Origin: Verrucomicrobiota bacterium
GTDB taxonomy: Bacteria; Verrucomicrobiota; Verrucomicrobiia; Limisphaerales; JADLHS01
Reading direction: 5' to 3'
Assembly: GCA_025350905.1 (NCBI GenBank)
Contig: JANXWY010000341.1
Span: forward strand, 1 to 51,988
DNA: 51,988 bases
Shown one piece after another: positions 27,509 to 30,704 of this stretch. The notes under the pieces were generated by a model that did not search any database, was not told the DNA's origin, and worked only from the letters and a program-made list of their open reading frames with translations. Position numbers and translations under genes: made by a program. Position 1 is the stretch's first letter, and every line of letters starts with the position of its first letter.

Positions 27509-28786
27509 ATGACCATTTTGGACGAACTCAACTGGCGCGGCCTCGTCGCCGACTGCACGGACACGGCGGAACTGACCAAGCGGCTCGCCGCCCCCACCAC
27601 GCTTTACGCGGGCTTTGACCCCACCGCCGACAGCCTGCATGTCGGCAACCTCGTGCCCCTGCTCGCGCTCCGGCGTTTTCAACTGCTTGGCCACTCGCCG
27701 ATTGCCCTCGCCGGCGGCGCCACCGGCAGCATTGGGGATCCGAGCGGCAAGACGGCGGAACGACAGCTCCTCACCAGGGAAATTCTCGACCACAACATCG
27801 CCAGCGTGAAAGTCCAAATGGCCAGACTGCTCGACTTCGACACGAAGCAAAATCCCGCGCGCCTGCTCGACAACGCGACTTGGACTGCGCCGGTCAGTTA
27901 TCTCGATTTCCTGCGCGACATCGGCAAGCATTTTTCCGTCAATCAGATGGTCGCCAAGGAAAGTGTGCGGGCACGCATGGAAGACCGCGAGGTCGGCATC
28001 AGCTACACCGAGTTCAGCTACATGCTGCTTCAGGCGTTTGATTTTTATCATTTGCGCAAAGAGTTCAATTGCGAGTTGCAGGTGGGCGCGACCGATCAAT
28101 GGGGCAACATCACGGCGGGAACGGAGCTCTGCCGAAAAAAACTCGGGGCGACCGTGTTTGGACTCACCTTCCCTCTCATGACCAAGGCGGACGGGACGAA
28201 ATACGGCAAGACCGCGAGCGGCACCGTGTGGCTTGCGGCCGAAAGAACCAGCCCCTATCGCTTCTACCAGTTCTTCATTCAGCTCGACGACACCGACGTG
28301 ATCAAAATCCTGAAGATGCTCTCCTTCGCCAACCAGCCACAGATTTCGGAACTGGAGCAACAGCACGCCGCCAATGCCGGCGCGCGCGCGCCACACAAAT
28401 TCCTTGCCGCCGAACTCACGGAGCTCCTTCACGGGAAAACGGCGGCGGACGACGCCCGGCGCGCGAGTGAAATTCTTTTTGGCGGCAATCTCGACGGCAT
28501 TTCCGAAGCCACCTTCCGCGAGATCGTGGGCGAAGTTCCCACCAAAGACATCGAGAAAGCCACACTTGACGGAACGGGCATCTTGCTCGTGGAATTACTG
28601 GTCCACTCAGGATTATGCCCGTCCAAAGGCCAAGCTCGCAAAGACCTCGAAGGTGGGGGCGTGAACCTCAACAACGTCCGCGAGGCCAACGCTGCCCGCG
28701 CCGTAACCACGAACGATTTGCTTTTCGGCAAACACGTCCTGCTGCGGAAAGGGAAGAAGAATTACGTCGTGGTGACGGCGAAGTGA
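27509..28786 (+). CDS. tyrS: Tyrosine--tRNA ligase
   Basis: YAGFDPTADSLHVGN, QVGATDQWGNI, KYGKT, C-terminal S4 domain with RKGKKNY. Confidence 0.97.
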   Translation: MTILDELNWRGLVADCTDTAELTKRLAAPTTLYAGFDPTADSLHVGNLVPLLALRRFQLLGHSPIALAGGATGSIGDPSGKTAERQLLTREILDHNIASVKVQMARLLDFDTKQNPARLLDNATWTAPVSYLDFLRDIGKHFSVNQMVAKESVRARMEDREVGISYTEFSYMLLQAFDFYHLRKEFNCELQVGATDQWGNITAGTELCRKKLGATVFGLTFPLMTKADGTKYGKTASGTVWLAAERTSPYRFYQFFIQLDDTDVIKILKMLSFANQPQISELEQQHAANAGARAPHKFLAAELTELLHGKTAADDARRASEILFGGNLDGISEATFREIVGEVPTKDIEKATLDGTGILLVELLVHSGLCPSKGQARKDLEGGGVNLNNVREANAARAVTTNDLLFGKHVLLRKGKKNYVVVTAK

Positions 28787-28814
28787 ACTTCGCAGAAGAG
28801 CGGGCTTCAGCCAG

Positions 28815-28968
28815 CCAGCGCCGTAGGCGCGGAATCTTCGTAGCCTGCACGGTCCGTTTTTCGCAAGCTCCGTCAGGAGCGGCATATTCCCCGACGATAT
28901 CGCTCCTAAGGAGCTTGGGATTGTTTTAGGGCGGAGGTTCTACAAATATGCCGCGCCGCTGGCGCTGG
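28815..28968. repeat. Nested palindromic element
   Basis: Outer CCAGCGCC..GGCGCGG..TAG / CTAC..CCGCGCC..GGCGCTGG; inner CAAGCTCC..AGGAGCG / CGCTCCT..GGAGCTTG. Confidence 0.7.
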
Positions 28969-28976
28969 TAAATGGC

Positions 28977-29045
28977 GTAGCGGCGACTCGGCAGAGCGCG
29001 GCCCTTTGGAATTCCGTCAGGGGCAGTCTGCTGACACACCGCTAT
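28977..29045. repeat. GTAG-capped REP-like palindrome (GTAGCGG...CCGCTA)
   Basis: GTAGCGGCGACTCGGCAGA pairs imperfectly with TCTGCTGACACACCGCTAT; shorter relative at 42694-42724. Confidence 0.6.
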
Positions 29046-29147
29046 GGGGAGAATGTGAATTACGCCGTGAAGACCAGTTAGCGCCCGTGCTTTCGGGAAT
29101 CAGGGCCCGGAGTGGCCGCCAGACTGAAAGAGCCGAACACGAAAGAG

Positions 29148-29210
29148 ATGAAGTTGGAGGAGGTCGTCAAATTGGTCGAACAAGCGGCCGTGCTTGTGCT
29201 CGTGTACTGA
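29148..29210 (+). CDS. Putative small peptide or gene-end remnant MKLEEVVKLVEQAAVLVLVY
   Basis: 20-aa ORF (32 aa from GTG 29112); 14/18 aa identical to the unit at 29287-29343. Confidence 0.35.
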   Translation: MKLEEVVKLVEQAAVLVLVY

Positions 29211-29214
29211 CCCT

Positions 29215-29282
29215 GTAGCAGCCGACGTGAGGAGGCTCATTTCAAACGCAGGAAGTCAGAGCCTCGTCACCTCGGCTGCTAC
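29215..29282. repeat. GTAG-capped REP-like palindrome (GTAGCAGCCGACGTGAGGAGGC family)
   Basis: 24-nt arms pairing 22/24; relatives at 15761 and 30714. Confidence 0.8.
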
Positions 29283-29286
29283 GATT

Positions 29287-29343
29287 TTGGAGGTGGTGGT
29301 GAAGGAGGCGGCGCAAGCGGCGGTGCTGGTGTTGGTTTACTAA
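29287..29343 (+). other. Second copy of peptide unit LEVVVKEAAQAAVLVLVY-stop
   Basis: Recoded copy of 29154-29210 with 7 synonymous codon changes and a TGA-to-TAA stop change. Confidence 0.5.
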
Positions 29344-29348
29344 TGTTC

Positions 29349-29434
29349 AACCACGAAATACACCAAACACACGAAAGGAACACTGCCCAGAATCGCCCGC
29401 CAGGTTTTTCGTGTGGTTCGTGTATTTCGTGGTT
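29349..29434. repeat. Palindromic element (AACCACGAAATACAC family)
   Basis: AACCACGAAATACAC...CACACGAAA / TTTCGTGTG...GTGTATTTCGTGGTT. Confidence 0.8.
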
Positions 29435-29645
29435 AAAAACCCCTTGAAACCGGCGGAGCGCGCGGCGGGGTTGGGGTTGGTTCACCAGCAAAATCTGGTA
29501 ATAAAACGCCAACAATCAATTGGCCCAACCGCCAGAATCCCCTACCCTCCTCCGCGTGAACGAGTGTCGGCTTTCCGGATATCCGGAACGACCTCTCCCC
29601 GCCTGCGGGAATATTTTGGCAGGTAAACGCAATCGACATTGAAAT

Positions 29646-30704
29646 ATGAACCACAAGATCACGCAACTCCTCGGCGATTCCGCCCCGGCGCTCCTCGAAC
29701 ATCAATGCAAAACCGTGCCCAAGGAAAACCTGCACCTTCCCGGCCCCGACTTCGTTGACCGCGTCATGGCCTGCACGGACCGCACTCCCCAGGTGCTGCG
29801 CAGCCTCCAGCAAATGTTCAACACCGGCCGTCTCGGCGGCACCGGTTATTTGTCCATCCTGCCGGTGGACCAGGGCATCGAACATTCGGCAGGCGCCAGC
29901 TTCGCCCCGAACCCGGATTACTTTGATCCGGAAAACATCGTGAAACTCGCCCTCGAAGGCGGCTGTAACGCCGTCGCATCCACGCTCGGCGTGCTCGGCA
30001 TGGTTTCGCGCAAATACGCGCACCGCATTCCGTTTATGGTGAAGCTGAATCACAACGAGCTGATGACCTGCCCGAACAAATTCGACCAGATTTATTTCGC
30101 GCAAGTCGAACAGGCCTGGAACCTCGGGGCGACCGCGGTGGGGGCGACCATTTACTTCGGTTCGGCGGAATCGGCGCGGCAGATTGTCGAGACCAGCCTA
30201 GCGTTCAAGCGGGCGCATGAACTCGGGCTGGCCACCGTGCTTTGGTGTTACCTCCGGAACAATGCATTCAAGACGAAGGAAAAGGATTATCACGTCAGCG
30301 CCGATCTCACCGGCCAGGCGAATCATCTCGGCGTAACGATCCAAGCCGACATCATCAAGCAGAAGCTGCCGGAGAACAACGGCGGCTATAAGGCCGTCCC
30401 GAATTACGGCAAAACCCATGAGAGGGTTTACACGGAATTGACAACCGATCATCCGATTGATCTGTGTCGGTATCAGGTATTGAACTGTTATTCCGGTCGC
30501 GCCGGCTTGATTAATTCCGGAGGCGAATCCAAGGGCAAGGGCGACCTCGAAGCCGCGGTGAAAACGGCCGTGATCAACAAACGCGCGGGCGGCACCGGCT
30601 TGATTTCCGGCCGCAAGGCGTTTCAACGGCCCCTGGTGGAGGGCGTCGAATTGCTCAATGCGATTCAGGACGTCTATCTGGACAAGGATATCACGGTGGC
30701 CTGA
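29646..30704 (+). CDS. fbaB: Class I fructose-bisphosphate aldolase (DhnA/FbaB)
   Basis: [30 protein letters not shown] (Schiff-base Lys), [10 protein letters not shown]. Confidence 0.95.

Follow-up and report, generated by a model that had tools for sequence, protein, structure and literature searches.

In the genome of a Verrucomicrobiota bacterium (assembly GCA_025350905.1, contig JANXWY010000341.1), the genes tyrS and fbaB are separated by a spacer at 28787–29645 of the window, the window being the whole stretch of 51,988 nucleotides that was analysed. The spacer contains three short units, two of which translate into peptides with the same hydrophobic tail, and palindromes of different kinds lie between them. 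Is such an array a set of small peptide genes or the remains of something longer, and if the latter, how did one sequence come to stand three times in a row? A first-pass annotation had offered two answers: a family of small hydrophobic-tailed peptides translated under selection, or 3' ends of a single gene, acquired in series and each accompanied by its own hairpin. The array itself is ordinary gene debris of a known protease family, interleaved with repeats that resemble repetitive extragenic palindromic (REP) sequences. It probably codes for nothing and is made up of three remnants (165, 57 and 44 nt), nested and each just 3' of a hairpin repeat, of the end of a protease gene that once lay between tyrS and fbaB, left there by repeated displacement of the gene's 3' end, and the second of the two answers is supported in substance by comparison of loci. 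In what follows, G000 is the window's own genome, other G numbers are other genomes, C numbers are contigs, L numbers are loci, and an asterisk in a translation is a stop codon.

The units and their protease gene

Units 1 and 2 share 14 of 18 residues, with the last nine identical, and 41 of 57 bases. Their codons differ at seven synonymous and four non-synonymous positions, and the stop changes from TGA to TAA; on the shared residues, the synonymous codons, the stops and the coordinates of both units, the first-pass annotation was accurate. The decayed third unit that it described is also real, with the coordinates given in Table 1. In anchored matches to the gene ends of the protease family described below, unit 2 scored 34.5 and unit 3 scored 13.5, against maxima of 10.5 and 8 in 300 dinucleotide shuffles; none of the 300 shuffles reached the observed score for either unit.

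The sequence given earlier for unit 1 stands, but unit 1 is not free-standing. Its frame can be followed upstream to 29046, as ...GENVNYAVKTS*RPCFRESGPGVAARLKEPNTKEMK..., and this sequence is homologous to the C-terminal region of a protease. Read as a whole in the frame of unit 1, the remnant is ...GENVNYAVKTS*RPCFRESGPGVAARLKEPNTKEMKLEEVVKLVEQAAVLVLVY*, with an in-frame TAG at 29079–29081. Unit 1 therefore closes a 165-nt, stop-containing protease pseudogene remnant. This remnant is not a living protease gene – it has only 54 codons, the in-frame TAG interrupts it, and there is no Pfam domain in its translation.

Two paralogues in the same genome identify the parent gene. A tblastn search of G000 with the remnant matched C145:79-237 (71.7% over 53 aa, E 3.6e-17) and C102:37400-37236 (61.8% over 55 aa, E 2.5e-11). 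The C102 paralogue is an open frame of 655 aa with six Sel1 repeats (3e-53) and a Trypsin_2 domain (9.4e-26), and its C-terminus reads ...KFEDVVKEAEQAAVLVLVY, ending in ...EQAAVLVLVY. When the 79-aa tail from C145 was compared with longer public proteins, 2437 matches were found at E ≤ 1e-3, and PF13365 was present in 117 of the best 120 of these. Those that are named in their sources are called 'S1-C subfamily serine protease', 'TPR repeat protein' or 'SEL1-like repeat protein [Verrucomicrobia bacterium]'. The check that had been proposed, whether homologues stand alone or form the C-terminus of longer proteins, was made within the longer proteins: all matches there are protease C-termini, which makes the units gene debris, and no search was made among proteins of similar or shorter length. 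The family's conserved C-terminal extension reads ...ENVNYAVKSS..KFEDVVK.AEQAAVLVLVY*, and the window remnant is homologous to this extension.

The possibility that the unit is a generic dispersed repeat was rejected, as in G000 it occurs at protease-related places only: six of eight matches to its 24-nt core are at such places, and the other two carry five mismatches each. The units are firmly identified as the last 18 codons of a Sel1-repeat plus Trypsin_2 (S1-C) protease family, that is, as debris of such a gene.

The synonymous differences between the units have a simple source. Unit 1 has 92% identity over 50 nt to the gene end on C145, and unit 2 has 90% identity over 41 nt to the gene end on C102; unit 2 matches its best other gene end at 49 of 57 bases, but unit 1 at 41 of 57. 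Units 1 and 2 come from different functional paralogues, and purifying selection acted on the parent genes, not on the fragments. The synonymous excess between the units was inherited from diverged functional paralogues before displacement. Conservation at the peptide level, which had been taken as a sign that the units were translated under selection, is real, but it is inherited from functional paralogues (C145, C102). This calls for caution in the discovery of small open reading frames (ORFs) and peptides, as a synonymous excess between short repeats here mimicked evidence that they are translated and selected.

In relatives, frameshifts or in-frame stops are found in many copies of the protease gene (L017, which is G019:C39; G019:C15; G019:C5; G024:C259; L075; L078), and many matches to the family in relatives are cut by contig ends. 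It looks like a multi-copy gene of fast birth and death that breaks assemblies.

The locus in relatives and the recurrence of stacked tails

Comparison of the tyrS–fbaB interval across relatives, which had been suggested as a check, shows a protease gene in place. G019:C39 carries a Sel1/protease gene of full length, though frameshifted, directly 5' of fbaB; a palB-like hairpin comes next, and then a 46-nt tail remnant adjoining the conserved fbaB leader. G004:C93 has a protease gene end at fbaB with the same layout. Both genomes have counterparts of unit 3 with the same left boundary at the same place at the leader, and both have a hairpin related to palB in the position of palB. G008 keeps only a more decayed copy of unit 3 at the leader. 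In G002:C20, tyrS and fbaB are ca. 112 nt apart, without an array. The order unit 2, palB, unit 3, fbaB leader in the window is collinear with the order gene end, hairpin, remnant, leader in G019. This collinearity makes unit 2 the former end of the resident gene and unit 3 a still older end. The body of the gene is gone from the window, where the remnant starts right after the weak palindrome H0, with the repeat rep0 just upstream.

The fbaB leader, which sets the right edge of the array, is ca. 150 nt long and was common to G000, G002, G004, G008 and G019 when upstream sequences were compared (L017, L035, L036, L037). Its shared blocks include GGCAAAATC, AACGCCAA.AATCA.TTGGCC, AAACGAGCGTCTCGTT and CGCCTGCGGG...TTTTGGCAGG. 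G001, G005 and G009 have a leader of another kind. The leader had no match in Rfam.

The block of tail, palA, remnant, hairpin and remnant occurs three times in G000: in the window, on C145 and on C474. Over 302 nt, the window copy has 84% identity to that on C145; over 245 nt, the C145 and C474 copies have 90%. Contigs C474 and C145 overlap by exactly 82 nt and carry one gene, whose frame is open across both; this joined gene has the cassette of palA, remnant, hairpin and remnant both upstream and downstream. A copy of rep0 also adjoins the truncated cassette copy on C474. The paralogous unit copies are frameshifted or interrupted by stops (...ERQRCGS* on C145, ...RRRCG* on C474), and the C145 copy of unit 3 has the same derived GGGGTTGGGGTTGG as the window. 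On C145 and C474, the remnants of units 2 and 3 enclose a hairpin of another family than palB, while the remnants themselves have the same boundaries and derived changes as those of the window. The succession of palA and a unit 2 remnant is found at C145, C474 and also G004:C383.

Stacked tails were then counted in a wider set of gene ends, made up of 21 from relatives and 25 from public metagenome-assembled genomes (MAGs), the latter from loci mostly in MAGs of Verrucomicrobiota, Limisphaerales or subdivision 3. After removal of two duplicates (L064 = L021, L077 = L012) and of L069, which lacks a family end, 43 non-redundant gene-end loci were left. Downstream tail remnants, 18 in all and 13–57 nt long, were found at 13 of these. 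Control scans gave none on the reverse complement and two on shuffled sequence, both at the threshold score, and the three weakest of the observed remnants (scores 9–10.5) may be due to chance. In the sequences inspected, hairpins start 0–7 nt past the preceding stop codon, and remnants start 0–10 nt past the 3' foot of the hairpin and end at a stop codon. The stacked hairpins belong to at least eight different families.

The gene end immediately upstream was the best match for none of the 18 remnants and had a median rank of 28 of 43; setting a single own end against whichever of 42 others fits best has an upward bias, and the rank is the fairer measure, though the members of the family are not independent. 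The remnant at G011:C23 matches a gene end of another genome at 36 of 36 bases, versus 27 of 36 for its own. In most of the 43 gene ends, the tail has the same protein sequence, with no ORF alongside. The loci have the arrangement of displacement arrays, in which 5'-truncated copies of a gene's 3' region lie behind the complete gene, the older ones more distal; in the window the most distal unit, unit 3, is also the most decayed. A search for the exact pattern of two GGTTTACTGA ends 90–125 nt apart, which is too strict for decayed remnants, found it in none of 24 genomes of the genus and one of 301 of the order (the G028 locus). A 240-nt tree of the gene ends was too short and noisy for clean A and B clades, so that the A and B labels of gene ends rest on the last 60 nt.

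Two loci have longer remnants. At L056, ca. 110–330 nt past the gene stop, a longer protease fossil (ENVEYAV... and then ...FLESVPEISAKLKEPN...) follows the first hairpin and is split by another one. At L047 (G003:C136, 1504–1988), nested hairpins come after a protease gene end, and after them a 102-codon fragment of the 3' end of tyrS; a further match to the tyrS 3' end is on C260 of G003; therefore hairpin-adjacent 3' remnants are not confined to the protease gene.

Formation of the array

One-sided recombination is proposed as the source of the stacked tails because the left junction within the gene is seamless, the tail and hairpin that follow are of a foreign type, the right junction lies at a variable point in the resident tail, and older remnants are more distal and more decayed. 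As inferred from these end products, recombination would take place between diverged copies of the conserved, multi-copy protease gene and would be anchored by homology within it. Homology would stop at the stop codon, where each copy has a different REP-like hairpin, and the far end would be resolved by an illegitimate join at the foot of the hairpin, from a few to ca. 57 nt upstream of the resident stop codon. The route could be one-sided, homology-facilitated illegitimate recombination, or synthesis running past the end of homology. Each event would install a new tail with its hairpin and push the old tail downstream, where it would decay. In the window, the body of the gene would have been lost later, upstream of H0, with rep0 between H0 and tyrS, so that only the tails were left.

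Several observations weigh against this history. There is no fresh event in which both donor and recipient can be named, so the route is read from end products. In every case inspected, the donor-side junction is at the hairpin foot, which would not be expected of simple illegitimate joining; mobility of the hairpin itself, or a nick of the Y1/RAYT type directed to it, may take part. The presence of palB in the window and of another hairpin family between the same remnants on C145 and C474 needs an additional swap of hairpins. The upward bias of the best-match comparison, mentioned above, counts here as well, and the cassette on both sides of one gene in G000 would fit a tandem duplication and later deletion too.

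That last history would start from two protease genes in head-to-tail order; a deletion beginning at the hairpin foot, for instance one of the adjacent deletions that a REP/RAYT-type element may promote, would then leave only the last bases of the downstream gene. Besides the joined C474/C145 gene, it draws on the fact that the window and C474 copies are both 5'-truncated with rep0 just upstream, the first ca. 24 nt of rep0 being the sequence that flanks a Y1 transposase gene elsewhere in G000, and on the longer fossils at L056, with its interrupting hairpin, and G003:C136, with its tyrS fragment. Yet the remnants cluster at 13–57 nt of a gene of 1.5–2 kb, while random endpoints would be spread over the whole gene; a diverged tandem pair would be required before each of at least eight independent junctions, and no intact tandem pair was seen in the loci examined. 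Tandem genes with deletion are an unlikely origin for these tails. It is quite improbable that the units are long, variable target-site duplications made by insertion of hairpins into the last codons of the gene, with neighbouring units initially identical. The structure is formally a direct repeat around a hairpin, with the right copy ending at the stop codon, and G000 has 16 Y1_Tnp matches and many mobile hairpin families. Under this explanation, though, the upstream gene end should resemble the remnant, and it was never the best match, most clearly at G011:C23. Nor were long flanking repeats found around any of 864 hairpins genome-wide: a shared flank word of at least 9 nt was present at 46, versus 26 and 20 in offset controls, and the longest was 15 nt. 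Elements of the IS200/RAYT type are not known to make target duplications.

Two further explanations would give the units a function of their own. They might be kept as non-coding elements, either as portable homology arms for the exchange of hairpin cassettes or as RNA or termination elements of tyrS or fbaB. Consistent with this, the same remnants flank different hairpin families in the window and on C145, some remnants are undecayed (36 of 36 bases), and the block from unit 1 through palA to unit 2 is better kept between the window and C145 than the protease fossil as a whole, which has 75% identity over its last 240 nt; on reading of the alignment, the bases 5' of unit 1 are the more decayed part. 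Remnants nevertheless have frameshifts, stops and decay in runs of G, G002 does without the array, the region has no Rfam match, and terminator-like sites are not in excess, all of which leaves a non-coding function very improbable. Small stand-alone peptides (toxin, signal or degron) under purifying selection, the first of the two original answers, are not supported by the comparison and have a probability close to negligible. There are two ORFs over the units, one of 32 aa with a GTG start (29112–29210) and one of 49 aa with a TTG start (29194–29343), and the synonymous excess between units 1 and 2 is real. However, the sequence is the tail of long Sel1/Trypsin_2 proteases, the three units are in three different reading frames, the 49-aa ORF runs through the palA repeat, no sigma-70-like promoter site was found in the array region, the downstream and paralogous copies are partial, frameshifted or stop-interrupted, and remnants in relatives are as short as 13 nt.

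If one-sided recombination did produce the stacks, its scope may extend beyond the window. As a tentative and rather doubtful generalization, the protease tail and the REP-like hairpins could form a recurrent, directional tail-stacking system, in which junctions are resolved at the hairpin foot, perhaps with a Y1/RAYT-type nick, and remnants later serve as portable homology arms for adding or swapping hairpin cassettes between loci and genomes. If this is true, one-sided recombination and REP turnover across Verrucomicrobiota can be read from the stacks as from a fossil record, and C-terminal displacement would for the first time be known outside polymorphic toxin genes. Stacking at 13 of 43 gene ends suggests that small rearrangements arise regularly in these soil and freshwater Verrucomicrobiota through one-sided recombination ending at REP-like hairpins, and the stacks would then date hairpin insertions and gene replacements relative to each other.

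Known systems, hairpins and layout of the spacer

Displacement of gene ends in rhs genes was reportedly treated by Jackson et al. in 2009. For type VI secretion system (T6SS) modules and rhs genes, the relevant sections of PMC5361080 describe orphaned 3' regions that arise by sequential displacement, and homology-facilitated illegitimate recombination is proposed there as the cause. The orphan arrays in those sections share with the stacked protease tails a conserved 5' anchor, a new 3' end that is installed while the old one is shifted downstream, and the most distal position of the oldest end. The displaced ends they describe are variable toxin domains with immunity genes, and displacement is driven by selection for diversity; in the protease stacks, the protein sequence of the tail does not vary, remnants measure 13–57 nt (165 nt for the fossil), the non-homologous cargo is a REP-like hairpin, and there is no evident benefit. 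Variable toxin ends with cognate immunity genes were not found among the 43 gene ends. The array works like displacement arrays but is not a polymorphic-toxin locus, and the recurrent stacking of tails represents C-terminal displacement in a modestly new form.

Homology-facilitated illegitimate recombination itself is covered in PMC3240628, and by de Vries & Wackernagel 2002 and Meier & Wackernagel 2003 as cited in PMC5361080. In the parts of these sources that concern the mechanism, one end is homologous and one illegitimate, which would explain a seamless left junction and a variable right junction here. Those parts demonstrate it in the laboratory with transforming or conjugating DNA, while for the window it is inferred from end products and the donor break would lie at the hairpin foot.

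Integration of mobile elements also displaces the 3' ends of genes, as with the e14 prophage in icd and islands in tRNA genes. Such loci resemble the array in that a replacement 3' end, differing by synonymous changes, lies upstream, while the gene's original end is left downstream as a pseudo-copy. They differ in having a whole integrated element with its integrase between the copies; here there is only a hairpin of 70–100 nt.

Two other kinds of system were considered and set aside. Integron cassettes with attC hairpins were suggested by the ends of palB (GTTCAAC...GTTAAAA), but both palindromes are dispersed and what would be 'cassettes' are gene tails; integrases were not searched for. A diversity-generating retroelement was rejected on reading of the sequences, as the differences between units 1 and 2 are not adenine-specific and the tail is invariant across the family; no reverse-transcriptase search was made.

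The first-pass annotation placed a palindrome of a different family upstream of each unit. This is correct for palA and palB, which are strong and belong to different dispersed families, but the palindrome at 28977 (H0) is weak and present as a single copy, with no other copy in G000 at E<1e-3. In G000, palA has 111 blast segments in 79 places, and palB has 40 in 23 places. A strict regular expression for palA found four elements (eight strand-wise matches), which was too strict, and was replaced by the blast counts. With arms of 24 nt, palA is a dispersed, multi-copy palindrome with terminal GTAG, a REP/REPIN trait. The relevant parts of PMC3733652 place GTAG-tagged REPs mostly just downstream of genes, and those of PMC3733652 and PMC2817692 associate REPs and REPINs with RAYT (Y1) transposases. 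The GTAG start and CTAC end, the dispersed copies and the position just past stop codons in palA agree with these descriptions. At 68 nt, palA is larger than classical REPs of 20–40 bp, and REPs are not known to leave duplicated gene tails.

Of the 16 Y1_Tnp matches in G000, one, a gene of the IS200/RAYT-like kind at C407:5419-6040 (L081, 88.7 bits), lies between inverted copies of the first ca. 24 nt of rep0, and palA is ca. 1 kb from it, not flanking. The gene and its inverted rep0 copies have a REPtron-like arrangement.

The features of the spacer and its neighbours are given in Table 1. For annotation, there is no gene between tyrS and fbaB, only a protease pseudogene tail and repeats. In Rfam, the region has no family, with two matches at E 0.55–0.66 that are far under the gathering scores. 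Three terminator-like sites were found, versus 1.6 ± 1.3 in shuffles, which is no excess.

Table 1. Features of the tyrS–fbaB spacer and the flanking genes (window coordinates)
Feature	Position	Strand	Evidence or remark
tyrS (tyrosyl-tRNA synthetase), upstream neighbour	27509–28786	+	ORF; Pfam tRNA-synt_1b 4.8e-72, SYY_C-terminal 3e-18
rep0, composite REP-like repeat between tyrS and H0	28860–28975	+	partial copies at C474, C296, C407
H0, weak imperfect palindrome directly 5' of the pseudogene remnant	28977–29045	.	DNA fold -15.5 kcal/mol, z -1.1
5'-truncated Sel1/Trypsin_2 protease pseudogene remnant, last 54 codons and stop	29046–29210	+	tblastn to C145, C102
Unit 1, last 57 nt of the protease remnant	29154–29210	+	translation LEEVVKLVEQAAVLVLVY*
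palA, 68-nt hairpin repeat, REP/REPIN-like, start GTAG, end CTAC	29215–29282	.	fold -24.4 kcal/mol, z -6.9
Unit 2, an older gene end of the common 'A-type' (57 nt), displaced	29287–29343	+	translation LEVVVKEAAQAAVLVLVY*
palB, hairpin repeat, AACC[AG]CGAA...TTCG[CT]GGTT family	29349–29437	.	fold -27.1 kcal/mol, z -7.9
Unit 3, oldest and most decayed of the 3' remnants, adjoins the conserved fbaB leader	29445–29488	+	32/44 to best family gene end
fbaB leader, outside the debris, fixed right edge of the array	29489–29645	+	conserved in five genomes
fbaB-like class I aldolase, downstream neighbour	29646–30704	+	ORF; Pfam DeoC/LacD aldolase 4.4e-62

In a scan of hairpin flanks for low-copy matches, 396 of 1903 flanks had non-self matches, a mixture of other repeats and paralogues that is too mixed for a conclusion. 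Elsewhere in G000, the region C415:24200-28110 has at least nine matches to the palA arm within 4 kb and could be a REP cluster or a mosaic region. A separate, MITE-like (miniature inverted-repeat transposable element) family has hairpin cores of ca. 152 nt with 9-nt direct repeats at fixed offsets on both sides; examples are C472:21186-21337, C179:13837-13988, C79:5684-5835, C67:8461-8612 and C469:26221-26372. These repeats look like 9-bp target-site duplications of an element ca. 35 nt longer than the core.

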